The notes under the pieces: model-generated
Told to the model about the DNA's origin: nothing
The model's input: only the letters and a program-made list of their open reading frames with translations
Databases searched by the model: none
Source: Isurus oxyrinchus
Lineage: Eukaryota
DNA length: 64,000 nt
Assembly: GCA_026770705.1 (NCBI GenBank)
Contig: JANJGN010000039.1
Location: forward strand, 2,418,001 to 2,482,000
Direction: 5' to 3'
Position numbers and translations under genes: made by a program
Shown: positions 10,092 through 57,799 of the stretch, piece after piece
How positions within the stretch are numbered: position 1 is the first letter of the stretch
Layout: each line of letters begins with the position of its first letter

Positions 10092-10333
10092 CAGGGACAC
10101 CAGCAATAGCAAGGATTGGATAATAAATCATTTGAATCACTTTAACTGCGAAGGAGATCCGGATTTCTAATGTGAACCATTCATTTTGCAGCGAAAATAA
10201 GGGCAAACCAAAAGGATAAACCCCTGGTCCTGATTGGAACATTCCAAACTGTTGTACTCAGATTCGGATCCATTGTTGTGAAATTCCAATATATTGTCCT
10301 CAGATTCTGAGCCATTGTTGTGACATGAAACAT
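10092..10333 (-). pseudogene. GPR139/GPR142-like GPCR copy A, exon 1 only (N-terminus and start of TM1); exon 2 not found in the window
   Basis: Reads ...NEWFTLEIRISFAVKVIQMIYYPILAIAGVP + G|GTAAG (phase-1 donor at 10092/10091), homologous to exon 1 of copy C. The frame from ATG 10333/10315/10273 needs a 1-nt correction near the A4 run at 10210-10213. ATG 10242 is in frame as assembled. Confidence 0.8.
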
Positions 10334-10379
10334 AATTGCCCTCAGATTCAGGTTTATCCTCTCTGCCTCTCAAGAGCCG

Positions 10380-10560
10380 TTGCTCCCTCTTTATGGCGGG
10401 GGTGATGCCCTCGCTGACACAGTGGACATAAGAAAGACAAGATTCCCTTTTTAACAGCTGCAAGGAAACCTCCAGCGGCGCAATTCGGAGCACTGGGACT
10501 GAAACCAATAACAGTCACTGAGCAGAACAGCCCAGTTAACCTCTTCCAGACGAAGTTTTA
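10380..10560 (-). promoter_or_regulatory. Conserved upstream region of GPCR copy A
   Basis: Aligns by eye with 47900-48080 ('gaaacctccagcggcgcaatt..cagttaac' vs 'gaaaccctccagtgacacaatt..cagttaac'). Confidence 0.55.
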
Positions 10561-10569
10561 TGCCATAAT

Positions 10570-12010
10570 GCAGTGGAACATTTGCACAGTATGATGGGGT
10601 TTGAGAGGATTATTGAGCGCAGGGATGGCGGAAATGATGGGAACCCTGGTCAGAATCTTTCAATCATCAATGGATATGGGTGAGGTGCCACAAGATTTGG
10701 AATATACCAATGTCCAAACCCATTAAAACGTAAATAAATGAATGGTCCCAGCAACTTCAAGATTGTCAGTCTAAAGTCCATCCTGGAGATATTACCACAC
10801 ATTGTAAAAAACTGCAATATTCTTCACTTGGAGGAAAAAAGAGGCTTAATGAATGACTAAGCAGACGAACATCATGTTTAGCAAAGTTGGTGAAGTTTGG
10901 TGAAACAATGGAGAGTTTTAAGGAGAATAATGCGTTTATTATGTATATACATGGTGAAGCGGCATGCGGTAATGTGCCTTTTAATGGAAGTGTGAGAATA
11001 ACCGAAATCAGGGCATTAAAGGGGCATTGGCATTTTTGGTATGTCATTGGCTGAGGTACAAAATACTGAGGGGACTAAATTAATGCTCTTGTTAAGGCTG
11101 GAGTGGAGTATACATTGATGTTCTTCAGGGGGACATTTCCAACACATTAAACTGCCGTTAATTTCACCTTTTGTAGAATACAGAAAAGCAGAAAAGTAAA
11201 CACCAAGAAGCTCAGTTAGAAACACAAAGCATGAGTATAACGGCAGGTTGGTGTATTGGAGAGACACACGGCTAATGCAATTTAATGCAGAGCAGTGCAA
11301 AGCATTGCATTGAGTGGAATTTGAGGAGCGTCAATGTAAACTGAAAGCAACGATTTGAAATGAGGAACAAGTCAAGACTGGGGCTGACGTACACACGGTG
11401 TTGAAGCTGCTGGAATACTTTGATTTGAATTGGATAATGCACACAAGTGTTATTGCCTTATCATTCCATGCAAATACTACAGAACAATGGGAGTGAGTGC
11501 TGAAATTCAATAAAGTAAAATTGTTGCATTCTGTCCATATCCAATTTATATCTATCTATATATATATATTAGAAACTATATGAGGAGGGTGCAGAGCGGG
11601 TTATTGCTTTGGTACCAGAGATGGTAGATCAATCAGTGAAATCGAGAAGTTAGAGGAGCTGGGCTTGCTCATTCCTTTACTGCAGAAGTTAAAGGCGAAA
11701 TGTTATCGCGGTGATGAATATTCCATGGTCTTTTCAAACGGGAAGTAAACATTTTCCCGCTCTAACTAGGATAGGTAATTTCATTGCCAAGAGTATCAGA
11801 GAGTCCATGATAAGAAAATGATTGTAGGGAGTTGTTACTCTCTGGAATGCATTGCCTGCAGACACATTGAAAGCAGTTTCAATGGGGAACTGAATAGCTA
11901 CTTGCAGCCGCTATGGGAAAAGAACAGACACGGGAACCAAAATCGGATATTACTTTGGAAGCCAGCACATGCAAGATCCAAGCAATGGATTGATTCTGCA
12001 CTCTATAATC
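10570..12010 (+). mobile_element. Degenerate CR1 LINE (RT region to 3' end)
   Basis: 'ggtgaggtgccacaagatttggaatataccaatgtc' resembles GEVPEDWRxANV; 'cccagcaacttcaagattgtcagtcta' resembles PGNYRPVSL; CR1-like 3' region. Confidence 0.7.
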
Positions 12011-12149
12011 CATCGACGTGAAGACATAAATCATTGACGCCCCCATCTTGTCTGTAAAATTTGCTTTCAGCTGTTCTTTTTTAACCAGATGTTGATCATT
12101 CCTTTAACCCTGGTGTAGGTGACAAAAGAACAGAAAACGCCTTAAGTTG

Positions 12150-16119: not shown

Positions 16120-19100
16120 GCACAGACAATAGGATCAGCTGTAATCCTTTTGGCCCTTCGATCCTGCTGCCTCATCCATATGTTCACATTTCCTCATCCA
16201 AAATAATGCTATTGTCCAGCTCTCTCCTCATAAGGTTTGATGTCTTTAGAGTCCAGAAAGCTCCTTCATAGTCTAGAAAGCTGTCCACTGTATTGCTAAT
16301 ATATCCAGTCCGTTGGCACCCGCAGACTTCTTTGGTCGATAAACCCTTAGATTCACCACGCTTTAGGTGGAGAACTTTCTGCTCACCTCAATCCGAAATG
16401 GCCTATCCCATATCGTGACACAATGACACCTTGCTCCAGATCTCGCAGCTAGAGAGGACATCATCCCTGCAACAAGTCTGTAAATTGCTGCCGAATTTTA
16501 TACCTTTCAATGTGATCCCCTTTCAATCAGCTAAACTCCAGGGAATGATGGCCTGGACGACACAATCTTTCATTATAGGACAATGCTGCCATCACATAAA
16601 TCATTCGGGTAACCATTCGCTGCACTCACTCCATGGCGATATTCCCTTTCTTTGGGAAGTAGACCGAAGCACACAAATCAATGAGTGGTCTCACGAATGC
16701 TCTCTAGAGATGCAGTAAGTCATCCTTGCTCCTGCACTCAAGTCCGGCAGTAATGAAGTCCAGAATGTCATTTGCCTTCCAAACTGCTTGCTGAAATCTG
16801 TACACCAACTTTTCCCCGTTTATCACCATTTAAATAATATTATTGTATTCAGGCTTTTTATGACCGAATTGGAATATGTCACACTTACCCAAAAAAACTG
16901 CATCTGTCATATCTTCGTCCACTCGCTCAACTTTCTTAAATTGCCTTGAAGCGCCTTTAAATCATCCTCACCCCTAACATTCCCTAATGTTTTGCTGTCA
17001 GCAAATTTAGAATTATTGCATTTTATTCCTTCATCAAAATCATTGATATGTAATGTGAACAGCTTGGACTCTTTCACTGATACATCCTGTACCAGTTTCG
17101 GCAATGCCTGCCACTCCAGAAAAAAGAACATTTATATCTATTCTCTGCTTTCGGTCTGGAAACTATTCTCAAACCATGCCAATGTATTGCCTCCGTTCAA
17201 ATGTGCTTAAATTTTGCACACTAACCTCCTTTGTGGGACTTTACCAGAAACTCCGTGAAAGCCCAATTTCACCACATCAGTTGTTCTCCCTGATATTTCT
17301 AACTGTTGCATCTTTTAAAAATTCCCATTAGGTTTGTAAAAAACGATTTCCCTTCCATAAACCCATGATGGTTTCGCCCAGTAATGATGATATTTTCAAA
17401 TGACCTATTAGCACAAGCTCTATAATAGACTCGAAAGTTTTGGCTTCAAGTGATGGTGGCCTGCATGTAATTTTCTGTTTGATTCTTCGCTTCTTATTTT
17501 GAACATAGTGACGTTACATTTGCCACTTTCCAATTCCCGGGCCTGTTACAGAATCTGCAAAATTTTAGTAGGTGAAAGCTAACACAATCTCTCATTCCAT
17601 GGCCATTCAGTTAGCACCCTCAATTGTAATGATCACGTCCTGGGGATTTATCGGCTCTCAGTCCAATTGATTTTTCCAGCGCTGTATTTCTTTTATTTTT
17701 TCCCGTGCTGATTTCCTTAAAATGATAGTTCTCGCTGGTTCTTTTTGCTTTTCTGGCATCTCTGGTAAGTTACTTGTGTTTACTCCTCAAATTACGTAAA
17801 TAAAATAGTTGCTTAAATACGCTGCATTGCCCTGTTCTCAGTTATAAATTCTACATTTTCAAACTGTAACGGTCCAACATTTGTCTTCACTAATATTTTT
17901 TACATTGTACATGCTTGTAGAAAATTTTGCACTCCACTATTATGTTTTTTGCAAGTTTACCCTCATGCTCTATGCCCTCTAAACCATCGCTTGGTCACCC
18001 TTCGATAAATTCTAAGCAGTTCCCAAATTGCTACTTTTGCTAACAAATTTAACTGACTCTTCACTGGATCCAGCACTATCCGGATATCGTTTTGTTAGCT
18101 GTTTTTGGGCTGCATTTACTGCTTTTTTTCTTATGAAGCCATGAAGGTGAATGTAATTGCAGCAATGCACAGATCCAGTCCAAAAATATAAAAATTTGCC
18201 TGAGCACCATGTATTTTAATGAAGTGACCCAAATTATCTAAGCCAACTCACCGTCTCATATCCTCGTAGCTTACTTTGTTTGAATGTTTGACGATAGTTT
18301 CGGATTGGACTATTATACTTTTCATCCAAATGAAAAATTCTATCTCACTTTGGTCACCATTCTCTTAAGGACATTGCACGACACGGTTATTAGCTTTCTC
18401 CTTCTCATGACACGATATCAAATCTAGGATAAACTGCTCCCTGGTTGGATCCCCGACGTAATGGTCCAATTAAAAAAAAGCTTTTCGCACACACTCGACA
18501 ATTCATTCGCCAGAATGTCATTGCTGATTGAGTTTGTCCATCAAACATCCATGATTTCTGCAGCATGTCAGTTACATGCATCTCTACGTTTCAGGTTAAC
18601 GCCTTTCCTTGCCTTATTGCTACATTTTGGCGCCTTTAGACAAATCAGCAAACTGTTCTGCACCTTGTCCCTTTTTCGCTACAGCAAGACTAAATCTGCA
18701 TCTAGATATTTTGAGCCAATATCAGTTCTCACAGTTGTACTCATTTCATTCTTATCTTGTAGCCCCGCCTCACCTCTGCTTCTTATTTCCCTGCCCGCCC
18801 GAAATATGGAAATCCCTTGGACAAAAACTTGCCAGCGTTGGAAGCCGTGCAGCCCTGTCTCAATGACCGAAATCACATTGTGCACGTTGAAAACTATTTG
18901 CGCTGTCAATTCGTCTAGCTTATTTTAATGCTCCATGCATTCAGGTGCCATGCCTTTAGAGCTGTTTATTCTAATATTTTTACAGAACCTGATTGCATTT
19001 GTCCCTATTTCCTGCAAAATCTATGTTCATTTGCTTCCCACATTTCTTTTTTAGTACTCTTTCATTTGTTTCTTTGTTCCCTCTCTTGTTACTCACCGCT

Positions 19101-24129: not shown

Positions 24130-24900
24130 ACGTTGCCCTTAATGAAACAGGTAGGATCCTGAAGAATTTTACATTCTGCATGTAAACAGTGTGTTTCTCT
24201 TGTGGGTGAGTTTGGAACAAAGCGAACACATTTTTCTACTTTTCGGTCTCCCGTTTAAAACAGAGATGGGAAGGTTTTTATTTCACTCAGAAAGTTGAAT
24301 GGCTTTGGAACTCTCTTCTCCGGAGAGTGGTAGGCTCATGCTGATGGAATATTTGTCAGGCAGGGGTCGTCAGTCTCTTTACAACCAACGATGTGAAACG
24401 TAATCGGAGGTGGACGGAATGTGGAATTGAGGCCACAATCAGATGAGCCACAATGGAATTTAATGGCGGACATGACTCGAGGAGCCGAATTCTCTCAGCC
24501 TGCTCGGGATTTCTTTGTTTGTGTTTTTCCAATACCATGTGCAGCTGTGTCTCCCATTGAATGCTAGAATCTCTGATCCTTGCATTTAAAGTATGGTTTC
24601 CTCATGCATGAATTCAGTTTGCCCTCGTACCTAAACCAGATCCTCTTGTCCCAACACTTCACCCTCCTGGAGATTCTGAAAGCTGCGTTCTTTCTCTTCC
24701 TCCAATCTCGATAACTCACTGGCACTCTGCCCAGCTCCATCTGTCCCACCCCCTCTAACAGCTTATATTTCAGCACATTTCTATTGTTTTACTCCTGATG
24801 AAGAGTCATGCGGACTCGAAACGTTAACTCTGTCTTCATTTCCACAGATGCTGTCAGACTTGCTGACTTTTTCCAGCTATTATTGTTCTTGTTCGATCAC
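24130..24900 (+). mobile_element. CR1 3' end followed by a retroelement tail common in shark genomes
   Basis: 'ccgtttaaaacagagatgggaagg..tcactcagaaagttg' CR1 3' end; 'tgatgaagagtcatgcggactcgaaacgttaactctg..cacagatgctgtcagacttgctga' tail, also seen at 46740-46870. Confidence 0.6.
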
Positions 24901-25684
24901 TCACTGGTTCAGATTCCGGCTTCCGCTTCTAAATCCATCCGAAAAGTGAAATTGCCAGCCGTGGCTGTCCGGCCTTTCCCGTTTTCTAACACCCGCTGTT
25001 GACACTTTAAAACCAATGGAATAAAGAACTTCTACCTGCTACTGTCCCATGGCATCCCAATATATAGTTTGGAGCAAAATTTCACTTGCATCGTTATATC
25101 CACGTTCAGCTGATTCGTGCATTGAGCACAACGCCCTCACTCAGTACTTCCAGTGGATTGTATACAGACATTGTTTACTTCATTTTTGCAATTGCCCCGG
25201 GGCATTGTTGATAAAGGTATTTAGATACATTTTTGTGACTGAATGTTTTGCCCAGGTCATTTATCAGTTTAGATATTTAATGCAACAAAGAGCTGGGATT
25301 TTAGCCCAGTTCGAGGCACACTGTTCCCTTGTCTCCATATCTGATGAATCACTTTTGGGTATTTTCTTCCTGCTTTTGTCTGCTCCAGGTAAATTCCGGG
25401 AGGTTTTGTTCCTGAAGCGATGAAAGTGTTCAACCTCAAAATGTGTTTTTTGCTACTTGGAGTGAATGGCAGACACCAAATTCCTTGTTGTTATCTCAGA
25501 TCCAATACTAAGAGGGAGTTGTCAGGAGGAACTCCCAGTTTTATTTATGTACAACAGTCGGATGTTTAAGTGCACTGCGGTTCCTAAACTTTCAACAAAA
25601 ATCACCTTGTTCTGCTTCACTGACGCCTTTACCTACGGTCCTTTAGAGGATATTTCTTGCAAGAAGCATTTGCATTTATTCACG

Positions 25685-25831
25685 NNNNNNNNNNNNNNNN
25701 NNNNNNNNNNNNNNNNNNNNNNNNNNNNNNNNNNNNNNNNNNNNNNNNNNNNNNNNNNNNNNNNNNNNNNNNNNNNNNNNNNNNNNNNNNNNNNNNNNNN
25801 NNNNNNNNNNNNNNNNNNNNNNNNNNNNNNN
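25685..25831. other. Assembly gap (N run)
   Basis: 147 Ns. Confidence 1.
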
Positions 25832-27584: not shown

Positions 27585-27654
27585 ATGGCAAAACTGAGAC
27601 TTCGCCAGATTGAAGACATTTACTATTATATTCTCGGGGCTATTGGTGTACCTG
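27585..27654 (+). pseudogene. GPR139/GPR142-like GPCR copy B, first coding exon
   Basis: ATG 27585: MAKLRLRQIEDIYYYILGAIGVP + G|GTGAGA (phase 1); same 'IYYxILxxxGVP' motif as copies A and C. Confidence 0.85.
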
Positions 27655-28799
27655 GTGAGAGCATAAAAACATCATTGGATGTATAAATGGATGTTGACTT
27701 TGTTCTCAAACGACGTTTCTGATAACGTGAAATGGTTTCTTTACTGTTGGAGAGTGTTCAAAGCTGAGATGCCAATTTAACCTGAACGTCACCTGATTTC
27801 TTATTTTTGCTGCATCTCTCATACGGGAGTTTCCAGTGATGACATTTTATTTATTCTATAGGGAATGTTTTGTAACTGGGTGGACGCTGCAATAAATGTT
27901 ATAACCAAGTGCAAACCGAGCTTGACGTTGTCGATACCACAATCTGTGCAAATCAATGCAAGATTCACCTTGAAATAATTGAAAGTGTTGGCTAATGGTT
28001 TCCAACGGTTTTGCAATGTTGCCAGCACGGAATCCCTGCCAACTCCCTTACATTTTGAGGCAGCAATAATTTTTACAGCTCAGTATGCAGGGAGGAGAGC
28101 TGGGCTGAAAGATAAAGCTGTGCGTGCTGAGGACAATCGACTATCTTCCTTGTTTGTATATATTGAAAGATATTCATTTCTGTAGCATCTTTTATCGACC
28201 ACCTTAATACATTTACATGAAGTATAGACACTGTAGTAACGCAGATGTGCGACAGTCAGTTTGTGCTCTGGAAGCTTCCACACGCAGCACATTGAAAGTG
28301 ACCCGATCATCTTTGTTTGTGAGTTTTAGCAGAGGTATTTCTATCAGTCAGGGCACAAACGGTTAAGAACAGCTTGTTGTTCAAAATGGTGGCAAGCTTT
28401 TTTTTTCTTACGGTTAACCCGTGAATCCATTTTATATACGTTCTGAAAGTTGCTACTTCAGACAATACATAACTACCTCACTACGGCAATGGAGCATTAG
28501 CTGAGAATTTTGTTCTCAAGTGCTGCCGCCGGACATAAATCGGTAACATCTATCTCATCATGGGGATTGGTACGGAGTCGTAGGTGGTACAATTTTGAAA
28601 CAGCAATGCAACCTGAGCACATATCTCATTCTCATTTTTGTGCTCAATTTAACTTCTCACCAACCAATTCCTGTTGCAGTAAACCACACTACCAAATATA
28701 AGTGATTTACATTGAGAATTGAAGTGGATCGATATTATGAATTTTCGGACTTTCCTGTCCCTTTGGAAAGCCCACATTGCAATCATATGCAGGTGCTTA

Positions 28800-38800: not shown

Positions 38801-39171
38801 TATTAGATATTCGGTAAAATATGGTTTAAATGGATTTCTAAAATACATAACATCAAGCCCTCAATGAGGATATTGTTTTCATTACTGGACACAACAATTT
38901 TACAATAATTTGAAAGCATTTGGACAGTTGCAGAATAATTTCACCACTATCGCTCTAAGGAAGAGAATTATAAATTACTTAGCAAGATCGTAGCAGTTGA
39001 AGAGGGAAAGGTTCAACATGGCTCGGTAGGGAGAGAGTTGATAAACATTATGGAGGTTTGAGTTTATTATAAACAGGGCCGAGTGAACTGGTTTGTAAAT
39101 GCTCAAAAGGAATCGGCAGGTTTGTAGCCCAGGGGCCGCTGACAGTTCAATAATCCTTGGGGAATGAAATG
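38491..39171 (+). repeat. Segmental duplication block 3 (paralogue at 61737-62905)
   Basis: 'aagcagtcacaacgatttggcaatatgtatttatttcgagatgcatgccc' and downstream text are shared; this copy lacks 62027-62515. Confidence 0.95.
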
Positions 39172-39659
39172 ATGCTCCCTGATTGGGTGAGGTAGGTGTT
39201 GATCACCGGGCGGATTTCTCTGATTATGTCAGGCGAATGGCAACGAAATACCAAATAGGCTGAGTGAATCGTGGTTCACCTGGTCAATCATTCCGATTGG
39301 ATGAGGTGGCTTTCAACAATAGTGTGCGTGAATTAATAGAGTGGTTGTGGAGATGGTGGTTTGGGGTAATGTTTGTGAGTCCCTGGGTGAAGCTCCGGCT
39401 TGACTGTGCTACCTGTAAGACAGCGGGCGGAGCTCCCGGATTGGCTGAGTCTCTGAAAAATATGTAGAACCGATACTTCACGACAGTCTTTAACTGCTGT
39501 CTGATCATGGACTGACTCACCCCATAAATTAACATCTTTGTGCAGTAACTTTAATTCATCAGCATAAACTTGGCACGTTAACATATATTGTCAGGAAATC
39601 TATAGTATAATAATTCACTAATTTTAACATATACGAATGTATAAGATTCCCCGACCAGG

Positions 39660-40032
39660 AATGTGATTTTGTGCTGGTTAGAATACATTCATACAGGGTG
39701 TTGATAATTGAGTGGATTTAGTGCTGGGTAACGTATATTCAGCAGAGTGTTTGATAAGTGAGTGGACTTACTGCTGGTTAAAATCAATTGAGCAGAGTAT
39801 CGATAAGTGAATGGGATTTAGAGCTGGTTAAAATATATTCAACAGAGTGTTGATAAGTGAGTAGATTTAGTGCTGGTGAAAATACATTCAGCAGATCATT
39901 GGTAAGTGAATGAGATTTAGTGCTGTTTAAAATACATTCAGCAGAGTGTTGATAAGTGTGTACTGGTTAAAATACATTCAGCAGATTGGTGCTAAGTGAA
40001 TGAGATTTTTTACTGTTTAAAATACATTCAGC
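39660..40032. repeat. ~50-bp tandem repeat, about 7 copies (GATTTAGTGCTGGTTAAAATACATTCAGCAGAGTGTTGATAAGTGAGTG)
   Basis: Units start at about 39665, 39715, 39765, 39815, 39864 and 39914. Confidence 0.9.
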
Positions 40033-42035: not shown

Positions 42036-42039
42036 TCAT

Positions 42040-42510: not shown

Positions 42511-43574
42511 GGGAGATCGAGGTCCAGTTGTGCCATCTTGCCCAACACACACACCCCAAATCCCCTGCAACGCCAACCCCTTTCTGTGCTGCATTGATAC
42601 CCACTTCTGTTATAAACACTAGCATTCAGTGGGAGCTGGCGTGCTGCCCATGCACTGATTTCCACTGTTACCTCGCTTTCACTTTGTTATCTTACTTGCG
42701 TTGTTGGTTACCCGAAATCTACGCTGTGACCACATCTCCTCTGAAGAGACCGCACCACGTTGCACTGTGACATTCCATTTCGGCTTCCAATCATGTGTTA
42801 GAAGGAGGATTCATGTCCAATCACTGAGAAGCAGCGGACAGTTCCACCGGCGATTTTAGAAGTAGGCTATCAATGGCTTAGTTTTCTGTTCATTCAGTGC
42901 GAGAGAGAAGTATAATGGCCATATTTCGTGGGCAATGGAAGTGTGGAAATGGCTTGAGATGTGTCTCCTGCCCTTCCCGTGTGAGGGATGGGGACGATGG
43001 GCTTTGCAATCGTCCAATGGGATGGGAGAAGTAGGTCAGTGGTGAACATTCAGTGCCTCCTCTCGCCCCCGCACACCCCCACCCTCCCATCACCATCTTC
43101 CCACCCCCGCCGCTGTAAATAAGAGAAAATGCTTTAATTCCAGAACATCATGGTTTCCTTGCTCCCACAGTGAGAGAAATTTTCCTCCTTTCAAACTGAG
43201 CAATGAGCTGATAAAATATTGGAAGCGCTGAGTCATTATGTTCCATTGATAAAGACACCTTGAACGCACTGGACACCCCCATCCTACACCCCCTCCCCCG
43301 TGCCAGCTGGCAATGTTAAATTCAATGAGAGAATTCATGAAACTCCTAGAATTTAATACTTCCAGATAGTAAACCCACTTCCACCTCCCAAATATCCCCA
43401 CCCCATCTCCCAGCCCCATCCTCTGAAAACGTTAAGTTAAATGTTAAAATTCCGGATGTTCGCATTGATTCTTTAAGCCCAGTAACAGACCCATATACCC
43501 TGCTGAAAATGTGAAATAATGTCCTAGAAATGTCAGATATTCAGCTCTTCTAATCATTGAACAAAGTAAAGAAT

Positions 43575-44453
43575 TTAAGTGAAAGGATATTTCAACACTT
43601 TCCACAACTGCTCCCTGAACCTAGTCTGTGTCACAGCATAAATCCAAGTGTTTGTGCAGCAACTAAGGAGCTGCAGCATGAAGCCCAATTCCAGAACAAA
43701 AAAATCTAGATACAGGGAATTATAGCCTAAATCAGACATCCGGATCCATATGGAAAAAAAACATTAGCATTCCCCATAAAACGATGAAATTGGCTGAAAT
43801 ATAAAGGAGTAACATGATCGATTTCTTTCGATTCTCCACCGCTGGGTCTTTGGGGCTTTGCCCACTCCTGTGAGGCCGGAGTCTCATGCGGGCCCTGCTG
43901 GTCACTAAAATATACTCGATGGTCAAAATATTGATGAGAAGGATCAGCACAAATGGGACACATGGTGTTAGAATGTGATGGGTGAACTCGATTGTTACCC
44001 AGACAGGATTGAACAGAACCTCCTTTCTGTAACCACAAAACCAGGGGAAGTTTACCATCCAGTACTGACCTGTGAACAAAAAATACCAGAAAATGTTCTT
44101 TGAACAGCTCAGTGCAATGACGGTTCCAAGAATCACAGCTGCCGTTTTCTCACTGCAATATTTAGTTTTCAGCTTCGGGCAACAAATGGCCACAAATCGA
44201 TCCAAGGTAAAAGTGACAGTGAACCATACAGAACAGTCAGTGGCTGCATAAAGCAGGACGGCATGGATATTACACACTCGGATTGATCGCAGGAAAGAAA
44301 AATACTTATCAAACACAATTGGAATATGCCTCAGTATTAGGTCCAGGATAATGACCAGTAGATCAGCTACTGCCATGGCCTCCAGGTAACGGGTAACACA
44401 ATTGGAAAGGCCACACCTCCGGCGCCTGAGTATCACAATCATGACCAGGTTCA
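43575..44453 (-). CDS. GPR139/GPR142-like class A GPCR copy C, exon 2 (TM1 to C-terminus); one +1 T frameshift in a T8 run (recent pseudogene or assembly error)
   Basis: Acceptor tttgcag|TG AAC at 44453. Motifs YLEAMAVADLLV (TM2), CSVWFTVTFTLDRFVAICCP (TM3), PCVPFVLILLIN (TM5), ENRKKSIMLL (TM6). Removing one T at 43754-43761 restores FFSIWIRMSDLGYNSLYLDFFVLELGFMLQLLSCCTNTWIYAVTQTRFREQLWKVLKYPFT*. Confidence 0.9.
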
Positions 44454-44599
44454 CTGCAAAGAAAGGTAATAAACATTAAAACGCTATATCACTCTGGTAC
44501 CAAAGTTGCCAGTTTAATTGAGATGCGATGGAGATGTGTTACAGCATCCTCCAGTGTAATGAAATGAATGGTCCAGAAACATGGTATAAAAAATGTCTG

Positions 44600-44900
44600 T
44601 GATATCGTGGAAGGCAGGATACATTGAAAGGTTAAAATAAGGAGGTGGGAATAGAGTGGAGATGGGAGTTTGCGGGAGAGCGGGAATATTTGCGAGACAA
44701 AGGAGGAAAGGAGTAATCGGGGGATAATCGGTGCGCGTAGCGGTGATAACAGCGCATGGAGTGGCGGGCGAGCGTGCCCATTATGGGTGGTACCCATGGG
44801 TGATGGTGGAACTCATGAGTGAGAGGGGAGACGTGTTTGAGTGAGAGCAGCCAGAGGTGATGATTACGTTCAGGCAAATAAGTGAAACGGGGTAATTTAT
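44600..44900 (-). mobile_element. L2-like LINE fragment next to exon 2, shared with copy D (57930-58260)
   Basis: G-rich plus-strand L2-type text at the same position relative to the acceptor in both copies. Confidence 0.5.
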
Positions 44901-45559
44901 TATTTTGCTCAACATATCTCCTGACAGGAAGGCTCTGCAGTTATGTGATGGAATGTTTCCTCTGTCCAAGGATGTTATTTTAGGAATTTCGAAGAGAGCT
45001 TTCTTGCGAATTATCATTTCAAATTAAATGATAAATGACCGTTTCTTACAAAATACGAAATGCAAGTAATAATGATCATGTACACCACAAACACTCATAC
45101 ACCCTCACACAAAAAAAATAATTTGCAGAAATGCTGCACATACTTAAGTTATTACGAGTGTAGAACAGGAACAGCTCATTCCTTAATATGCTTAATGTGC
45201 TGATTGTAAACATTGCAGGACTGAGGTCTTCATTCCTCGGTTATTGAAGACAAATGGAGTTTTTAAATATCTGGCTTTTAGTCTACAATGTGGTGGAGCC
45301 TCTGTGTTCACGAAATGTACCAACATGTACAGCCTATCAGCCTCTTTTAATGCTTGAAATCTTCAAAAATGTCTCTTAAAAATGTTATTTTGAAGTGTTT
45401 CTATTATGAGCAAAAGTCTCCCTGTCCTTCGATCTTGGTGTTGGATTTCCGTTCTCCAAACACTAAAATTTATGTTGTGTACAACTTCAGAAAATGAAGT
45501 TATGTGCAAACTGGATTCTTAGTGGCACATCTAGACAACCTGTCAAAGGCGAAAACATC

Positions 45560-46400
45560 CAGAATATATCTTACCACAATCTCCTCTTCTCCTGAAGTGT
45601 ACTCTGGATTCCTGGTGACAATGGTCCTTATGATGGTGATTATATGAAGGATGCAGCAGAACATTATGAACATGGCCACCTGCTCCAGCGTGTAAGGGAG
45701 GGTTCAATCCCAATGGCTCAGGAATGAGAAGCGTTTCTTTCCCACAATGGCGGGCTGATCCACAATGGTCTGTGCGACTCCATTGCTCTTGGTATTGAGG
45801 TGTTCTGTTCACCTGCTTGGTTGGAGGTAGGGAATGGCGAAGTTGCATTCTTTTGATCCATGTTCCTACGGGGCAGCCTTCATCTACGAAAAGCCACTGT
45901 GTGCTTCCCTATGGAGCTACGGAGATGCTGGAAACGTCCGACTGCTTCATAATGAAGGTATTGTGGCTCTCGCCAGGAGCTTGGATGTTCACCAACATGA
46001 TGTACTGTCCATAAATATACATCAAATGGACGTGAACTGAATCAGAATTCTTTCAGAGCCTTTGACTCTGTCCATTCTAATGGGTACACGGCAGAATTAC
46101 GTACGCCATCGTGAATCCCTCTGCCCTGGGAGGCCATGGGACGGATCAATCTGCTTCTCCCTGTTAAGGGAGCAAAAGTACAAACGTGGCACCCAACAGA
46201 GATGTTCTCTGTCAGCTAATGAATACATAGTTAGACAAAATACTGGGAGATAATTAATAAAACACCAGCTATTCTCCTGCGTGGACTGTTCCGAATCCAT
46301 AACAGTTTCAATGATCATGTGAACACCGTGTCCAAAGACAGCAGCTCCCGCACCCTGGTGTGCGGCCCCAGGTCCTGTTGAAGGAGGTGACACGGGTCTG
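45560..46400 (-). mobile_element. Degenerate PIF/Harbinger (HARBI1-like) transposase in the intron of copy C
   Basis: 'KNSDSVHVHLMY' resembles KGFHSINVQLVC; 'IMLVNIQAPGESHNTFI' resembles ARYPGSSHDAFI; 'GKKRFSFL..PYTLEQVAMFIMFCCILH' resembles LKxRFRCL..YSPEQV..CCxLHN. Confidence 0.75.
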
Positions 46401-47089
46401 TAACACCTTATTGTTTTGTCAGAGTTATATCCGTCTATGAATATGTTTTAGGTATAGGTTTGTAAAGTGTTCCTGACAATCCAGGGGTGCTTAGAGCAGT
46501 GCAACACCTCTCCCCCCCAAAAACAAATGTTAACAGGCGGTGCCCTCCCTATTCACTCCGCTCTTTTCGCTCGTCATGGTACAGGTCCAGGTGCACTGTA
46601 ACTACATCCCCAAAACCTCTTCCAAAGTTGGGCCTATAAATCCTCTATCGTCTCTCAATTTACGCAGCCCTTCACAGCACAGCACAATGAAGACCATCTA
46701 AAGCACCTCAATGGACTTTGAAATAACAGTGATAAAAACAAAACAACAGCAGATGCTGGAAATCCAAAAAGTTCTGTCGAAGGGTCATGAGGACTCGAAA
46801 TGTCAACTCTTTTCTTCTCCGCCGATGCTGCCAGACCTGTTGAGTTTTTCCAGGTAATTCTGTTTTTGTTTTGAAGTAACAGTAGTCAGTCAAAGTCCGT
46901 TCAGCTGACAGTCAGATGTCTGGCCCGTTTCAATTAAACTGGAAAGGGTGCCTCATGTTTTTTAACAAATATTTAGCTGAGAGTGATTAACACAGGCTTT
47001 CGGTGGACGGGTACAGCCAGTGTTTCAAAGGCATGCATCAAACATACTGAAAACCCCCGCACAACACGGGACACCATGTGTGAGTTTCT

Positions 47090-47595
47090 GGACATGGGAT
47101 TGATTGGAGAAGCGAGATTAAATTGTGATCAAATCACACGATTGGGAATTTTGAAATTGACGGACTGAAAGACCTGGCAGCAATCTTGGCCCTTGAGCAC
47201 AGGGATAATGGTGGAATGAGAACTGGCATGGGCAAGTTTACAAAGATTAGAGTTTTATATGGGGCATGTTTTAAGAATGTTTGTAGCAGCAATTGTCTGG
47301 CCAGATTAACATTTTAATAGCCGAGTCTGGCTTGGACAAATGCACAGCTGAGGGATCATTCGGGTGATGTGTTGATGCAGCGAGGATAGTGGGTGAGGCT
47401 AAAGAGCTGGTAGAAGACAGGCTTAAGGATAGAAAAGGTGAGGGCTCACAAATCAGCTCAGGGTAAAATGGAGCATGGAGGTCGAAGACACTATGGTTCA
47501 GGCTTGGATAGTAGTGCGGTAGGCGGGTGGAGCGACTGGATATGGAACGATCATTAAAACGGGAACAGTAGCAAATGACTTCCATCTTCCTGAAA
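47090..47595 (-). mobile_element. L2-clade LINE 3' fragment just inside the copy C intron
   Basis: Same L2 segment as 9340-9850, ending at the equivalent 'aatgacttcc'/'aatggcttcc' position. Confidence 0.65.
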
Positions 47596-47664
47596 TGTAT
47601 GAGACAATAACAGTAATACAGTCAATCTGGTTTAAGGAACAGATTGTTGCATATAGGTTCTTAC

Positions 47665-47839
47665 CGCTGACACCAACAAGAGCCAGGATGGGGAAGTAAC
47701 CAACTTGGATTAACGAAATTACTCCCTCGATCCTTTCAGCTAATGATATCCGATCTTGAGAAAGGTAGTAAAGCCCGGAGGATAAACTCCTGTCCATTTT
47801 TGTGAAATTCCAAGATTTTGTTCTAAGTTTCTGATTCAT
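47665..47839 (-). CDS. GPCR copy C, exon 1
   Basis: ATG 47839 (or 47797): MNQKLRTKSWNFTKMDRSLSSGLYYLSQDRISLAERIEGVISLIQVGYFPILALVGVS + G|GTAAG at 47665/47664. Joins exon 2 in phase 1 (G|TG = Val). The corrected product is 350 aa. Confidence 0.88.
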
Positions 47840-47899
47840 TGTTGTCACGTTCCAATCTATTATTCTCAGGCTCTGATGTTTTCTCTCCCCCTCTCAGGA

Positions 47900-48499: not shown

Positions 48500-51400
48500 T
48501 GCCCTTATTAACCCAGGACCCCAGCGGCCAGGCACCATTATTTTTGGACCAAGGATAACGTTTGTTCAGTGGTAAAGAAGTAGATCTTCCAGTGGTCTCC
48601 TGAACATTCACTAGAAGCAATTGCACAATTGGTATATCTCTTTAGATATCCAGACCACTCAATCTAAATTCACCTCTCCTTTAGTGTTAGAGGATTATCC
48701 ACGAGTTCCTTAAGAATCTGGCATCATGCCCAATTGCAGAGAAACTGAGGCCTTTTCGTCAAGTCTTCACTCATTGGCAATCTGATACAACTGAAACTAC
48801 AAGGTCATAGGCTCCGTGTCTTTATGTATCTGTGCGGCTCCCCCTGATCACAAGTTGCGAGTCAACAACACAGGTTTATTTCCTACTTCTTGTTTTAGAT
48901 GTGACTTCACTAAATCACCAAAACCTTTAGTAGCCAATCTCTTCATTTCAAGACTCGTAATGCAGTCATTAAAATGTATACATTTAAACAGTGCCCCAGG
49001 CTGGCCGGCTGAATGTCACAAAAATCCAAACTGAAACCAAGCCCAGGCTTCACATTACAAATACAATTGTAGCTTGCCTAAAATAATATCGAGTTCCCAT
49101 CATTTACCCCGCAAAAGGATAAGAAATGAAAAGGTAGCTTTCAGAGGCATTTTCATTTCCCGTTAGCATCTCCTCTCATCACTAAATCTATCTTATCTTA
49201 CAGCTTTTACAATAGCTGTAATTATGTTCTTACAAAAAACATGCAAGTATTTCCATAAGAATCATACTCTATACAAGTCCATTTTAATTATGGTGTTCGT
49301 CTTCCTCCATATTTGCACTTGATGAAGTATCTGTTGTTACACTGTAACTTTCAGCGAAATGGCTGAGTTTTTCATTGGGAGGGAGTGGCCTTAAACTCTA
49401 CCAAAATAGTATTGGTTTCTCATTCTGAAACTTTTCTAGGAAGGATATTGGATTTTGATCCTTATAAAATAATAATTTCTGCAGAATGTTTGGATGAGGA
49501 GACATGTTGTACTGCCAGCACTATATTTAGATAATCCTTCTCACTTCTGAATATTTCCCCTGGTAAAAAAAAAAGTACATTTCCAGTAACTTAACAGACT
49601 GGCCGTTCAATTCCCGTCTCGTCGCCCTGTGGTAAAACTGCTCCAACACTCACTAGCATCAAAAACTAGTTTAAATGGCTTCACACAATGTGATGCTGCT
49701 AAAGCCGGTGGAGTGGTGAGTACAGCATTCAAGATGCCAAAGGCACTTAGTCCATCCTTTGTCCATTCAAATATTTTTGCTTTTCTTTACCGAGATGAAG
49801 TTCAGGGCAAACGTCCTATAAAATGCATTTATGCCAAGCGACCATAACATCGCTCCATTATTCTTAAGCACTGTCAATCCTGGATTACCCATATTTTTGC
49901 TTTTCTGGAGATCAGTGTGCCTTTTCACCAGAGCTTGGCCCAAATCTATCACTTTCGTTTTGGAAAATTCACTTTATGCAAATTTTATGACTAAATTGTA
50001 TGTTTGTAAATGACCATACACATCATTCAATTGTATAAGTTCTCCCCAAGCTCAGCCTAACACAACGAACTTCTCACTATATGTATAACACTGTTAAATA
50101 ATCCTTCAAAAACGCGTTCGCTGAATCATTGACATGTTACTGTTGCATTCTTCATTCCGAAAGACATGAAATTACGTTCAAAATACCCATTCGTGGTTGC
50201 AAAATCTGTTGTTTCTTTGACCACTTCTGTTAATGGGACTTTTCAGTACCCCTACAATAAATCATTTCTTTTACCAGGAAACTTGCTTGCCCAATCTTTT
50301 CAGTACAGTTTTCCAATCCTGGAATAAGATATGGATCCGCGTATGTGAATGCATTAACGTTGCCATAAACTATACACAATCATTCTGACCCATCTAGTTT
50401 AGGTGCCTTTATAAGAGGTAAGCTCCATGTACTGTGAATCGGTTGAATAATGTCATCGTCGAACATAAACTTTATTGCTTCCTTCGCCGAGATTAACATC
50501 CCTGGAATAAGCCTGATAGATGTTGCTTTTTGGTGACATCCCCAACATTGCAACATATAAGGCCAAAGCCGTTTTCCTTGGTCGATCTGTACATTGAGTT
50601 TCATGAGTTTGTAATAACTTTCATAAGACATCTCGGAATTATTTTCTGGAAGAGAGCATAATATGGCAGGGGCATCACGGGTTATCTGGCTTAAATTGCT
50701 AAATGGAAATCGAAACACTGGAAGATCAAATATTATCTTATTGAATAGTGGAGCAGGTTGAAGGGACTGATTGTTCAACCGCTGTTATTATTTCTTATGC
50801 TCTTATCTAAATTTTAACGGCCTCTGAACTGTACAATATAACCACTGGAGAGTTGAGTTTAGAATTTCCGATTTCTGGTTCATTCTCCAAATGGTTTGAG
50901 ATATTAATTTCTCCCCTTTCTCCTTTCACTTATGCAAACACATTCCTCTCCTGGTTACCTTCCCAGCCATTATTTGGCTTTAACATATTGACGGGAAACA
51001 TTCAGTTGAATTTCACCCTGATTGGAGTGCTCACTAGATCATTCACAGAATTGAGTTTCTTTGTGACTTGGTAAAGGCCGATGAACCTTGCTTTTCTCTT
51101 TTTACTAGCGAAAAGTTACCAAACTCAAACATTTCATTCAGCAACAAAACTTCGAGTTTTGGAATAGATATCTGCACCTGCTTCCATTGTTTGTGGTGCA
51201 TTTCTATTTTTACATGATTTTTGGCCGACCCACAGGCCTTCCCAGCAGTTTGTCACGTTGGTCAAATGTGACATCTCGGAACTTTGGTTGATAAATTTTC
51301 CTTTAATAAATTTCACTGGATCTCGCGCCACTTCCTCAACTATCAGGTCAAAAGCACTGAATGCTGTGGACTCCTTCTGGGCGTCCCTTAGAAATACCAA

Positions 51401-52484: not shown

Positions 52485-55091
52485 GGGTGGAGTCTTCTGA
52501 GCCCACTGACGGCGGGTGTGATATGTGGTGGGCATGGAAAATATGGTGGGGCCCACTTCAAGACGGAATGAAGGCAGGTCGCAATCTTCTCCTCAGCTTA
52601 CCGCTAGCGGGCTGTGTTTCTCACCATCGGTCAACGAGAAGCAGTAGCAAGTGTGATTTTAATTGATTCAGGTTGCCTACCCGCGCCTTTAAGGATCCAA
52701 GAGGCTCGAAAGTGCCATCAGCCGCTCCATGTCTTACCCGACCGTGCCCCCCCCCCCCCCCCCCCCCCCCCCCACTGACCCCCATAAAAACTGGCACTGG
52801 CTTCAAATCCGCCAGCACTTCATTGCACTGCACAACAGTTGCGCTGCACACGTTGTGTAATCTCTTCGCCAACACTGGTTATGTAGCAGTCACTGCTGGA
52901 GGTGCTGTCAGCTCCTTGCATATTCAGCATCATTGTTTGTATCAGTGTCCCCAATGCCGAATGTTGACAAGTCACCCAGGCAGAGCAATCCTCCCTGGCA
53001 TTCTGAGGGGTGACCAGCACTTTCTGGGAAGCATTATGGGTTTTTACTAAAGGACCAGCGATGATTACCACGTGTCGCTCTCTTTCGTGCTGTAGGAGGA
53101 CCATGTCAGGAACATGAATCCTGGTTACCTAGCAGCACGCTTAATGGCCTACAGGGACCGTTTAAGATGGAGGAGAGAGCGACTGGTCAGGCAGCTTCAG
53201 GAGCAAAATCCAGGAGTTAAAGGCTGCATGCTGGCTGTGACGCTCTGGCTGTGAAAACTTTGGCCTCGGTCCTCTCAGAGGCCGAGATTTGCAGGACACC
53301 TGTCTGTTTTCATCGCAGTGGCAGCCTGCTCGACCTGTGCAGCTGGATCTGTATAGTCTACAGGAAGAGGGAAGGCACATGGGCCTGTCACTCGCTGAGT
53401 CACTCGGTTGGATGGCCCCGGAGAGTGCACATGCTGACCTTCCTCCCTATGTGTGCCCGAGAACCCCTTGCTGACTCAGTGGGTGGGAGGGGCAGCTGGA
53501 TTGAGATCATGCATCCGAGGACCCATCTTATGTACGGTCTGCTGGACGCCAAATATGGCAGCAGCAGAAGAGTTAAGCCCATGCAGCATTGCATGAGTAG
53601 ATGCTCTGGACCAAGGTCTCCATGGCAAACACCATAATGCCAGTGTTGGACACTGCATGTTGCAATGCCGGTGCTCCTACATGAACCTGGAGATGGACGG
53701 TCTCCTCCATCGTGCATTACAATTTGAGGAGGGCAGCTGACATGACTTTCTGATGTTGGCTGGCTTACCTTTGCAGCTCCAATTCTGAGATATGACCAAG
53801 TCCAGTTGCTCAACATCTGACTCGTATTCAACAACTTTCTGGCTTCAGAACTCCGTGTGTGGAGACCAGGGAAATCCGTGCCTCCACCTGCTGTGGAGGG
53901 GGCAAGTTGTCATCAGGTTATGATCCCGAGGCTTCTCTAAACCTACGTCCCATGGAGTCGTGTGTCTCTACACTGGTAGAGGGCGTGGATGAGCGCTCTA
54001 AAGTAACTTTAGGCTGGGTGCCTTCAGACTCCTCCTCAGACTTTTAAACGGAGCTGTATGGGGGCACAGAGTCCTGGAATCCGTCGGCCGTTTCGCAGGT
54101 GTACCTGAGAAAACAAGGGGAAATAATCAGTGCATGATATTGGCATATGATAGAGGACACATCACACACAGAAGTGTTTGCTAATGAATGCTGCAATCCT
54201 GGATCCTCACTTGGTAGATCATTGCTGACCTCATCGTTAGCACAAGAGTGGTCCCAGTTATAATTGCCCAGATGAATGACTCTGTTGTTCAATTCCATCA
54301 GAATGTTGATGTCCAGCAATTCGTTCCTGTCTGTGATCTAGCCTTCCTGTTGTGATCCAATTTGTCCATCATGGATAGAGATAAGACGGTGTATCATGAT
54401 TCCTGCCAGGCCAGATGACAAGTATGCCTGGCATGTGTGGGTGGTGAATGGCCCAATGTGCGGGATGAAGACAATGGCGGCCTGTGTGAAAGAGTCAATG
54501 TCGCCGTCCCTTGCACTGGCAGTGAGTGAGGGCCTTGTGTTTGAGTGATGGGTTTGTGAGAGTGTGTTATGCGTGAAGGAAAGAATGACTTACACTGGAG
54601 GGACAGAGGAGATCATTCATCCTTATGTGACACTTGGTGGTTGTCTTTATCTGCAGGTCGTTCGCCCTGACCAATGCTGTGAGCGCTGTCCAGTCTGGGT
54701 TTGTGACATTGATGCCCATCCTCCAGATGCTAGGGCACATCCCAGCGGCCCTCCAGCAGTATCTCGAGGAATCCATCATTTAAGAGGATGGCTGCAGGCA
54801 TTTTACCTTTGTTGGCCTTATCTCCCAGACAGAAGTGGTGAGCTGGTGGTGATCAGCGATTTGCTGAGGGCTGCATTGTAAAGGCAACGGCCAGGGTGAT
54901 GCAAAAGTGCTTTAATGTTGAGCGATCAAATCGAAGTTCTGCCACCTTTGAAACAATGTGTTTATTATGCATAAATAATAAAGTGGTCTTGGGAAGTTAT
55001 GGCATGAAAACCCGCCATTTTTGTCGGTGGCCAGGGCTCCATTTCACCAGCATGCTAGCGCACTTAGAGCAATTATGGGGGAATTCCAGCC
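52485..55091 (-). mobile_element. Harbinger-type element carrying a spliced Myb/SANT-like gene (degenerate)
   Basis: ORF 54567..54779 'VTNPDWTALTALVRANDLQIKTTTKCHIRMNDLL' followed by a GTAAG donor; upstream 'LNDGFLEILLE'; second exon 'DKLDHNRKARSQTG' at ~54300-54370; TIR-like ends GGGTGGAGTCTT and GAATTCCAGCC. Confidence 0.7.
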
Positions 55092-55439
55092 ACTGAAACA
55101 ATGTGTTAAGAAAGAATAAGTTGTTTTGGCTGTGGGCTTTCAGAGCCGAGGCACCAACGGAAGGAGCACAGCAGCCCTTTTGCAGCCAGAGCCATCCCAC
55201 AGCTGGAGGTGAATAGAAGCTACTCTGAAGTAATCGACCTGCAGGGATTGAGATCCCATGAGTCTTTATTGTGCCTGAACGAAAAGAATCATCAGTTCTT
55301 TCAATGATCAGTTTTGGGAGGCCAGGATGACGCCATTGAAGAATTGCTCCATTTTTGCTTACCCCTTGCAATATTGATTATTGACCTTTGGGAGAATTCC
55401 AATTTTTCCAGTGTGTTTTTGTGCAGATGAGTGATTGCG

Positions 55440-55736
55440 TATCTGTCTCACTCTCTACCTCTCACTCCATATGCCTCTCTCTGTTCAGGTCTTTCTCTTT
55501 GACTCCCTCTCTCTCTCTCGCTTTCTTTTTCTATCTCTCATCTCTCTGTTTCTTTCCCCCTCTCTCTTAGATAAATGTATCTCTAATTTTCCTTTTCAGT
55601 TCCCAAATTAACTGGGAATTATCCTTGATCCTTCGCCCCTCGCTTCCTGCTGGAATTTGTCTGGCAAATGTGTTTGTGTATGTTTGAGTATATTTGCCTA
55701 CGTTTGTATGCCTGTGTGTGTGTGTTAACATGTGTG

Positions 55737-55767
<31 letters not shown>

Positions 55768-56542
55768 TAATCCATGTGGGTGTTTATGTATGTGTGTGTG
55801 CACACTTGTCTGTCAGTGTGTGTGTCTGTGTTTGCATTTGTTGGTCTGTGTGTATGTCTCTGTGCATGTACACACGCGTGTGTGTGCGTGGAAGTGCTCA
55901 AACGTGTGTGTGAGTGACAGAGAGAGAGAGAGAAAAAGAGAGAGAGTCTTTGAGTATCTTGTAAAAGTGGTTAGTATAACTTCATATTCAAAACTGCAAG
56001 TTAACAACTTTTGCCTATCTATTTAACTGGACTGGTCTTATAAATTAACAAACATGCTTGTTATTTACTGAACGAAGCTTGATTAACGTCTCTTTTATTC
56101 TAACAGTAGCAAAATTAAACAATTGGCTAATTTAGTGTGTGAATCTGTCTTTTAAACTATTGGTATGACCTGTGGAGTAGTGGGGTTAAATATACTGCAC
56201 TCGTATCCCAATTGCTCGAAACAGGCTATGTCTCTCTCTGCCACTCCTCTGCTGTCTTGTACTCGCATTCTCTCTCTGCTTATCTGTCTCACTCTCTACC
56301 TCTCACTCCATATGCCTCTCTCTGTTCAGCCCTTTCTCTTTGACTAACTCTCTCTCTCTCTTTGTTTTTCTATCTCTCATCTCTCTCTCTCTCTCTCTTT
56401 CTTTCCCCCTCTCTCTTAGATAAATGTATCTCTAATTTTCCTTTTCAGTTCCCAAATTAACTGGGAATTATCCTTGACCCTTCGCCCCTCGCTTCTTGCT
56501 GGAATTTGTGGGGCTGTGTGATGGAAATTTGTCTGACAAATG
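55440..56542 (+). repeat. Local direct duplication (55440-55670 vs 56281-56542) flanking a (GT)n/(GA)n microsatellite
   Basis: 'ctctacctctcactccatatgcctctctctgttcag..ttcccaaattaactgggaattatccttga' occurs twice. Confidence 0.9.
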
Positions 56543-56906
56543 AAAGGGTAGTTTTGCCATGTTGTTGATTTTCATTGGAATCAGTGTGACGAATGAGAAT
56601 GCTGGACAGTAGGAAGTGCAATTTGGAGGGGACACAGCCAGGGCAGGGGTTTTCTCTCCAACCAGGGTGAGGGATTTCTGTGATGCCAAAGCTCCCATGA
56701 GAGGGAAGAGATGTCTTATTACTGATATTTCTTCCTTTCAATCATTGTGTTGCACGATGAACAGTTGAACTGGCAAAAGAGCGAGGACGGCTAACTGGAT
56801 GTGTGTGCCTCCTCCACACCTTCCATCTCTGCAGCTCCAGCCGCTGTGGTTCTGTAATTAACTGAGAACCTGCTGAAACGCTCAGTGATTTGTTTATTTT
56901 TATTGT

Positions 56907-57799
56907 TTAATATGTTGAAATAATTGGGGTGAAGAGATGTTGCAGCATATTCTTAAATGCTCCGTGAACTTAGCCTGCTCTCTCTGTAAATCCCATGGTT
57001 TGTGCAACAACCCAGGAGCTGCAGCATGAAGCCAAATTCCTGCACAAAAGCATAGAGATACATAGACTTATAGCACAAATTCCACATCAGTCTCCAACTA
57101 GAAGAAACAATTGACATTGAACATAACAGGAAGAAATTGGCTGAGATATCAGACAGAAAATTCATAGATTTCCTTCTACTCACCATCTATGGATCGCCGG
57201 GATTATCCCACTTCCGTGAGCCTGGAATCCCCTGTGTTCTCTGCTTTACATTAAAATCTACTTCACCATGAAAACAGTGAGCAGCAGAAACAGGGTAAAT
57301 GGAAAACAAGATGTTAGAATATGTTGGAGGAACTCAATTGCTACCCAGAACAGCGATTCGTGAATATCCCATGTGAAATCCCTGAAACCAGGGGGCGTTC
57401 ATCAGCCGATATTCAACTGTTATCATAATATACGAGAAAATGTTATTTGAACAGCTCAGCACATTCAATGTTCCCAGAAGCACAGTGGCTATTTTCTCAC
57501 TGCAATATTCAGTTTTCAGCTTCAGGGAACAAATGGCCACAAATCCCCCAAAGGTGAAAGCGACAGTGAAACAGACAGGACAGTCTGTGGCTGCATAAAG
57601 CAAGATGGTGTGGATATTACACACGTGGATGGAGTTCCAGAAGTAAAACTGTTCCTTAAACAAGAATGGAATGTGCCTTATTATCACATCAGGGATAACG
57701 ACCATTCGACAGCCACAGTCATGGCCACCAGGTACTGAGTTACACATTTGGACAGACCACATCTGTTGCTCCTGAGGATCACAAGCATGACAAAGTTCG
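56907..57799 (-). pseudogene. GPR139/GPR142-like GPCR copy D, exon 2 pseudogene
   Basis: Acceptor caggcag|CG AAC at 57799; reads NFVMLVILRSNRCGLSKCVTQYLVAM / IIRHIPFLF..VCNIHTILLYAATDC..TFGGFVAICS / SRRKSM..ISANF..FGFMLQLLGCCTN. Several frameshifts, and DRF is mutated to GGF. Confidence 0.92.

Follow-up and report, generated by a model that had tools for sequence, protein, structure and literature searches.

A decaying receptor gene cluster in Isurus oxyrinchus belongs to a large, apparently undescribed elasmobranch family related to GPR139 and GPR142

GPR139 is described as a two-exon gene whose orthologues are 70-96% conserved and whose product binds L-Trp and L-Phe at a site made up of F109, H187, W241, N271, R244 and E108 (PMC7318219). 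A common origin of the GPR139/GPR142 lineage with the MIP/sex-peptide, FMRFamide, proctolin and myosuppressin receptors of protostomes has been reported, with no vertebrate peptide counterpart described (PMC8514136); in our own careful tree these receptors form a distant outgroup on long branches. Two further receptors placed close to GPR139/142 have been named GPR210A/B; they are reported from gar, from coelacanth and from some fishes, in a paper whose text does not contain the word "shark" (PMC6504862). Cartilaginous fishes are reported to lack MAS1/MRGPR and, in the same whale-shark paper, to have relatively few G-protein-coupled receptors (GPCRs; PMC8455134), and the catshark is credited with small sets of 2+6 OR, 3 ORA, 3 TAAR and 2 TARL genes and with 32 V2R genes (PMC11979771). 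Here we analyse a 64-kb window of Isurus oxyrinchus DNA (contig JANJGN010000039.1, positions 2,418,001 to 2,482,000; all coordinates below count from the first letter of this whole stretch), which is a decaying corner of a rhodopsin-class multigene family of elasmobranchs from the GPR139/GPR142-related lineage. The family is real and apparently undescribed.

Four to six paralogous two-exon loci of class A GPCRs lie on both strands of the window. The range arises from remnant F, which may be a separate copy or the displaced 3' end of copy B, and from the partners of copy A exon 1 and copy D exon 2, which may lie outside the window. Copy C, on the reverse strand, consists of an open exon 1 (47665-47839; 175 nt, 58 codons plus 1 nt) with one N-terminal repeat unit bearing an N-glycosylation sequon, a phase-1 GT-AG intron of 3211 bp within the first transmembrane helix (TM1; 44454-47664), and exon 2 (43554-44453), which runs from the second half of TM1 to helix 8 and is 71% identical to its best catshark homologue; another repeat unit, without an ATG, stands immediately upstream of exon 1. 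Copy A is present as exon 1 only (10092-10333, reverse strand), with a repeat-built N-terminus, the first half of TM1, a +1 frameshift near 10204 and a phase-1 GT donor. Copy B, on the forward strand, has an open exon 1 of the short type (27585-27654; 70 nt, 23 codons plus 1 nt) with a phase-1 GT donor, an intron of 8343 bp, and an exon 2 remnant (35998-36209) that spans TM1 to the start of TM3; no more than some 70 codons of it can be recognised, and they are interrupted by frameshifts and stops. Copy D is an old pseudogene reduced to exon 2 (56919-57799, reverse strand), with 73% nucleotide identity to copy C, five frameshifts, three stops and loss of the DR of its DRF motif. Remnant E (25389-25666, forward strand) is a decayed 5' part of exon 2 (TM1-TM3) that follows an AG acceptor, carries two stops and ends in an assembly gap, and remnant F (39441-39667, reverse strand) is a decayed 3' part of exon 2, from the end of TM6 to helix 8.

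The splice sites are canonical. A GT donor stands after the TM1 codons at 10092 in copy A, at 27654 in copy B and at 47665 in copy C, and exon 2 is preceded at the same codon by an AG acceptor at 35998 in copy B, at 44453 in copy C, at 57799 in copy D and at 25389 in remnant E. The first-pass annotation had proposed four paralogues on both strands between 10092 and 57799, one conserved phase-1 TM1 intron and two N-terminal types. Its four copies and its intron stand, as do its N-terminal types (a 42-bp, 14-residue repeat in A and C, the 23-codon short form in B), and its bounds are exact, since exon 1 of copy A ends at 10092 and exon 2 of copy D begins at 57799; it had overlooked remnants E and F. 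In profile searches the exon-2 pieces scored 23-424 bits and the exon-1 pieces of A and C 17-31 bits, against a maximum of 2.0 bits in a reversed-window control. Copy B exon 1 lies outside the profile matches of at least 5 bits and was recognised by its splice site and shape together with a weak tblastn match of 32 bits. At the same threshold no exon 2 of copy A was found in 1-10091 and no exon 1 of copy D in 57800-64000; a further candidate piece at 45206-45511 (forward strand) was set aside as too weak, at 6-7 bits.

Copy C exon 2 matches the Pfam family 7tm_1 at 47.5 bits (cut-off 30.5), which identifies it as a class A GPCR, and this generic domain was the only one matched in Pfam. The class A motifs N1.50, D2.50, D/E-R-x, W6.48 and N7.49-x-x-Y7.53 are present, as counted in 120 members of the clade described below. 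Intact relatives are predicted to fold as ordinary seven-transmembrane receptors: the model of the close homologue P0001 (mean predicted local distance difference test score 88) has seven helices, a beta-hairpin in the second extracellular loop (ECL2) and helix 8. By profile, human GPR139 is the best of 468 PDB sequences (E = 1.7e-29 versus 7.4e-22 for the next) and is followed by peptide receptors, and the best Foldseek match is again human GPR139 (7vug), with 23% identity in the structural alignment. GPR139 is thus the closest characterised receptor by both methods, in keeping with membership of a GPR139-related superfamily. It is reached by single-sequence search at an E-value of only 8e-5, and in a second structure aligner, by which class A families are not separated, many peptide receptors tie at Z 26-27.5 and GPR139 falls outside the top 50. 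Look-alikes from a protein atlas were discarded as kin, being generic seven-transmembrane clusters (rotifer, nematode, opsin) that are uninformative; unnamed invertebrate-type receptors occur among the weaker matches at 26-31% identity. None of the named matches bears the name OR, TAAR, V1R or V2R, and none of these families was placed in the trees.

The family shares with human GPR139 its two exons, H5.42 and W6.48, and GPR139 is its best PDB match and the source of its automatic annotation. It differs in its identity of about 23%, where human and zebrafish GPR139 share at least 70%, and in comprising many genes rather than a single copy; three of the six residues of the L-Trp/L-Phe site are kept, with E3.32, R6.51, N7.39 and also P6.50 gone from the clade of copies A, C and D. 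The cysteines that join TM3 to ECL2 are retained in the family, whereas GPR139 has Asp at 3.25. By its low identity and by its pocket the family is not GPR139, and by these two measures we place it outside the GPR139 and GPR142 orthologues but inside the wider lineage related to them.

A search with copy C against 5.8 billion proteins, grouped in clusters at 90% identity, returned 1038 protein clusters at E ≤ 1e-5 among 1275 candidates, which disposes of the possibility that there are only a few copies. The best 120 of these 1038 clusters, which were the ones examined, are 62-71% identical to copy C; 116 are named, all of them from sharks: Heterodontus (56), Heptranchias (29), Rhincodon (9), S. 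canicula (6), S. torazame (5), Stegostoma (4), Chiloscyllium (3), Pristiophorus (2), Carcharodon (1) and Mustelus (1), with four unnamed. The label "probable" or "putative GPR139" is attached to 114 of the 116. The horn shark (Heterodontus) alone thus has at least 56 distinct proteins, less than 90% identical to one another and all of one clade. Two clusters, of 15 and 20 near-identical proteins, consist in all 30 members listed of horn-shark proteins, which are spread over several scaffolds; many horn-shark copies are more than 90% identical, indicating recent bursts within the species. Among representatives at 50% identity, 97 reached E ≤ 1e-30 in an exhaustive search, although fragments and chimeric gene models account for many of these; of 19 whose source was looked up, 18 belong to sharks, rays or skates and one is unnamed. 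Rays and skates carry other subfamilies of the receptor family, and no chimaera occurs among the named matches, in which sampling was partial. These counts bear out the earlier proposal of a large, lineage-specific birth-and-death family hidden under a generic GPR139 label. The supplement of PMC8455134 also lists a 7tm_1 orthogroup, OG0000181, of 199 proteins from 17 taxa that has no line in the human-gene file; it might be this family.

Two phylogenetic trees were built, a careful one of 46 hand-picked rows and a quick one of 100 rows drawn from 399 proteins. In the careful tree, copy C falls with 100/100 support in a clade with catshark and Mustelus proteins that bear the N-terminal repeat, by which the source of the window would probably be a galeomorph shark, and in the quick tree copy D joins the same clade (hereafter the A/C/D clade). 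Copy B exon 2 finds its best matches outside this clade (51.6 versus 46.2 bits), and the subfamily of the remnants is ambiguous (46.6 versus 45.1 bits for E, 41.2 versus 40.8 bits for F). Several subfamilies join sharks of different orders, or sharks and rays, at high support in the careful tree, which indicates that deep diversity has been kept. True GPR139 or GPR142 was absent from the listed matches of three homologue searches and one profile search.

The nearest relatives found in vertebrates other than elasmobranchs are two conserved genes present at about one per species. The first, the group of coelacanth XP_005988539, ranges from coelacanth to lizards and has shark orthologues of its own, so the expanded shark family is a separate lineage. 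The second, the group of XP_069092602, was found in amphibians and sturgeon only (25 matches, about one cluster per species); the quick tree, though not the careful one, makes it the sister gene, at a support of 87. Both resemble the family in their short N-terminus and in a TM1 start like that of the short type seen in copy B, and both differ from it in copy number, in a pocket of above-average conservation and in a basic residue at 6.51. Genes of the XP_005988539 type (P0247, P0282-P0399) occur in sharks, bony fishes, amphibians and reptiles, keep R6.51 and are again labelled "probable GPR139"; no mammal or bird appears among the 120 matches listed, and some of the gene models are fused to TMEM183A, which suggests a synteny neighbour. 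The amphibian and sturgeon gene (P0249, P0400-P0419) has a very constant pocket (0.96) that includes K6.51 and N7.39, making this orphan a candidate amino-acid-type receptor. The two genes are possibly GPR210A/B of Rinne et al. 2019 (PMC6504862).

Pocket and G-protein-face positions were taken from general class A numbering, excluding TM4 and ECL2, and the GPR139 site was mapped onto the A/C/D clade through the profile alignment and helix anchors. Among the 120 clade members examined, H5.42 is kept in 117, W6.48 in all 120 and an aromatic residue (Y/F) at 3.33 in 117, while E3.32, R6.51 and N7.39 of GPR139 occur in none; E108, R244 and N271 are replaced by L/V, L/F/I/Y and F/Y/L/V, respectively. 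The clade instead has a fixed polar and acidic pocket core of H3.28 (119), D3.37 (120), E5.39 (111), H5.42, E7.36 (105) and Q7.42 (114), together with the TM3 and ECL2 disulfide cysteines in all 120 members; variation within the clade sits in the N-terminus, ECL1, alternating positions of ECL2, and ECL3. Across 44 divergent members of the whole family, mean column identity is 0.30 in the pocket, 0.48 over all TM positions and 0.73 on the G-protein face, and none of 20000 random position sets was as low as the pocket. The two conserved genes, used as controls, reverse the pattern, with values for pocket, all TM and G-protein face of 0.96, 0.80 and 0.88 in one and 0.80, 0.68 and 0.78 in the other. 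Judged by these alignments, the subfamilies share one intracellular face and differ in the ligand pocket; diversification of the pocket is upheld between subfamilies, while within the A/C/D clade the pocket is no more variable than the other TM positions.

The retained residues of the L-Trp/L-Phe site, and the position of human GPR139 as the nearest solved structure by sequence, could be taken in favour of the first-pass annotation's version, in which the family would be an expanded panel for sensing aromatic amino acids like GPR139 and GPR142. We consider this very unlikely, as E108, R244 and N271, which make up the polar half of this site, are replaced throughout the clade, GPR139 is without the TM3 cysteine that the family keeps, and the conserved relatives, with K or R at 6.51 in 23 of 23 and 46 of 46 sequences, are better candidates; aromatic amino-acid sensing by the family itself is, on these residues, unlikely.

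The N-terminal unit of the repeat-bearing type is 14 residues long and contains a Met, a conserved Arg and the pair Trp-Asn; in most cases an NxT sequon is present as well. Among the 84 clade proteins with a recognisable first exon, 51 have one to five Trp-Asn units and 33 have none. The unit behaves as a coding minisatellite, with up to five near-identical copies (P0007, P0015, P0016), and one catshark cluster has units of 13 residues. Since every unit starts with Met, alternative starts could tune stalk length and glycosylation. A tethered ligand, as in protease-activated receptors, was suggested by the conserved Arg (71 of 90 units) and set aside for a glycosylated stalk as the plainer account.

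The genes in the window show how the family turns over: tandem and segmental duplications raise the number of its two-exon genes, which are lost by frameshifts, stops, exon loss and rearrangement. The first-pass annotation held most copies to be disabled; disablement is confirmed, and with frameshift-aware alignment it extends to all copies as read. Copy C has a +1 frameshift in a run of eight T at 43761-43754, at the end of TM6, after which the receptor as read stops, and a TAA at 43577-43575, seven codons before the usual stop. Sequencing error in the T run was entertained as the cause of the frameshift and is possible, but there is the second lesion, and copy C departs from the clade at 15 of its 152 conserved columns (conservation of 90% or more over the 120 members, which represent 10 shark species). 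Among 119 homologues the median number of such departures is 4 and the highest is 14. Its branch in the careful tree is hardly longer than that of its sister (0.26 versus 0.21), which weighs against a real pseudogene; we nevertheless judge it likely that copy C is one. Pairwise comparison of the coding DNA of copies C and D alone gives a synonymous divergence (dS) of 0.56, a nonsynonymous divergence (dN) of 0.28 and a dN/dS of 0.5 (0.35-0.72), a value in which past constraint and subsequent decay are combined. The receptor copies in the window are probably non-functional. A 2.5-kb mosaic of three non-coding pieces from around copy B (60423-62905; 92-94% identity) combines 30655-31864, an inverted 27653-27763 and 38491-39171, and contains the copy B donor site without its exon, pointing to a recent rearranged segmental duplication within the cluster. 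The locus is a pseudogene graveyard, and its interest lies in the wider family.

As a large, lineage-specific, clustered family with pseudogenes, the receptors resemble a chemosensory or sentinel-type repertoire. They share with the OR, TAAR, V1R/ORA, V2R, FPR and MRGPR repertoires the tandem clusters, many pseudogenes, lineage bursts and, in comparisons between subfamilies, a variable pocket above a fixed G-protein face, and differ from them in ancestry, matching generic 7tm_1 only. The best reading, to which we give a probability of about 0.5, is a putative detector role for cues from outside or from microbes. Each intact gene would then encode a receptor for its own ligand, all would feed one G-protein pathway, and the family would serve as a panel of detectors for variable molecules, read out in chemosensory or sentinel (barrier, immune) cells. 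The ligands are probably peptides. These are made likeliest by the disulfide, by an acidic core ringed by variable positions, by the peptide receptors that come next after GPR139 in the profile ranking and by the relationship reported between this lineage and the MIP/sex-peptide and FMRFamide receptors; such peptides might have a common basic anchor and a variable remainder, and their source might be external, or might be microbes, prey or mates.

Several observations weigh against this reading or against the evidence beneath it. Any set of paralogues that bind different ligands should have a scrambled pocket, which is no proof of a sensory role. The 44 members behind the family-wide figures are mostly 50%-identity representatives and hence divergent by selection. 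Hypervariability of the pocket is absent inside the A/C/D clade, where its mean identity is 0.80, against 0.77 for all TM positions and 0.87 for the G-protein face. As this pocket is as conserved as the helices and the C versus D comparison gives no evident positive selection, the rapid divergence claimed at first is not borne out. Monophyly of the family is weak in the careful tree, where all 28 family rows group at 71/80, and 26 of the 28 at 89/89; true GPR139 and GPR142 are in neither tree, and orthology was judged solely from sequence identity and the residues of the pocket. A number of horn-shark copies sit on short scaffolds and may be artefactual duplicates of the assembly. Weak in either direction is the finding that the top 50 brain-and-olfactory transcripts of the catshark, as given in PMC11979771, include no GPCR, since known receptors are absent from them too.

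Duplication-driven drift would dispense with any detector role: in unstable, repeat-rich regions copy number would rise and fall without selection for breadth, and most copies would be redundant or dying. The broken state of all window copies, the rearranged segmental duplicate and minisatellites lying among them and the near-identity of many horn-shark copies agree with drift, as do the many database gene models with implausible N-termini, which would be expected from thin transcript support. Conversely, the 152 conserved columns, with their median of 4 deviations per protein, the retention of deep subfamily diversity between shark orders and between sharks and rays, and the unequal divergence of pocket and G-protein face all speak against drift, which we regard as an unlikely explanation of the family.

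To a similar degree we doubt that, instead of detecting outside chemicals, the family is an internal signalling repertoire for reproductive, endocrine or neural peptides, for instance seminal or gamete peptides as with the insect sex-peptide receptor. The kinship of the lineage with MIP/sex-peptide receptors and the constancy of the pocket core in the A/C/D clade agree with such a role, and catshark OR, TAAR and V2R genes are themselves reported to be often expressed in non-olfactory organs, among them testis, spleen and rectal gland (PMC11979771). Receptors for endogenous peptides are usually low in copy number and conserved, as the two bony-vertebrate relatives are. To our knowledge there is no expanded peptide family to match the receptors, which we also count against this alternative.

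No flanking genes were found within the window, and its remaining features are repeats and gaps. A 50-bp minisatellite of about six copies (39659-39998) adjoins remnant F where the remaining exon would be expected. A degenerate tandem array of 55-56 bp units occupies 22-2793, with 72-74% self-identity over offsets of more than 500 bp and scattered copies to about 2800. Possible retroelement remnants, recognised by eye as pol-like or antisense to LINE frames and without a Pfam match, lie at 50380-50784 (reverse strand), 18428-18928 (forward), 52820-53128 (reverse) and 60717-61028 (forward). Short dispersed repeats at 24800-24893 and 46779-46870 (79% over 94 bp) and at 55436-55660 and 56277-56509 (91% over 235 bp) are probably SINE-like or local duplications. 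The two assembly gaps are at 25685-25831 (147 N), truncating remnant E, and at 59422-59585 (164 N), within a CA-rich microsatellite.

No description of the expansion was found in the full-text literature searched, a coverage outside which most subscription papers lie. GPR139 goes unmentioned in the main text of the catshark sensory paper (PMC11979771), was not found in the searched supplements of PMC10115646, and was likewise not found in the searched supplement of PMC8455134, where GPR142 has a single orthogroup line. What is new, then, is that a lineage with no known expansion has given rise to a large repertoire of GPCRs. The family is invisible to surveys limited to the four known olfactory families, and most shark genes annotated as "probable GPR139" are something other than GPR139. 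At least 56 horn-shark proteins of a single clade contradict the published paucity of GPCRs in cartilaginous fishes. Whether chemosensory, immune or reproductive, the family is an independent large receptor repertoire that arose from an orphan lineage whose genes in bony vertebrates have each stayed at roughly one copy. Lastly, we tentatively suggest, as possible rather than probable, a fifth chemosensory family of sharks and rays, of GPR139/MIP-receptor descent, with dozens to hundreds of genes per genome and in some species more than the V2R repertoire, that would detect peptides in olfactory, taste or skin cells; if true, this would overturn the view that the shark nose relies almost only on V2Rs.

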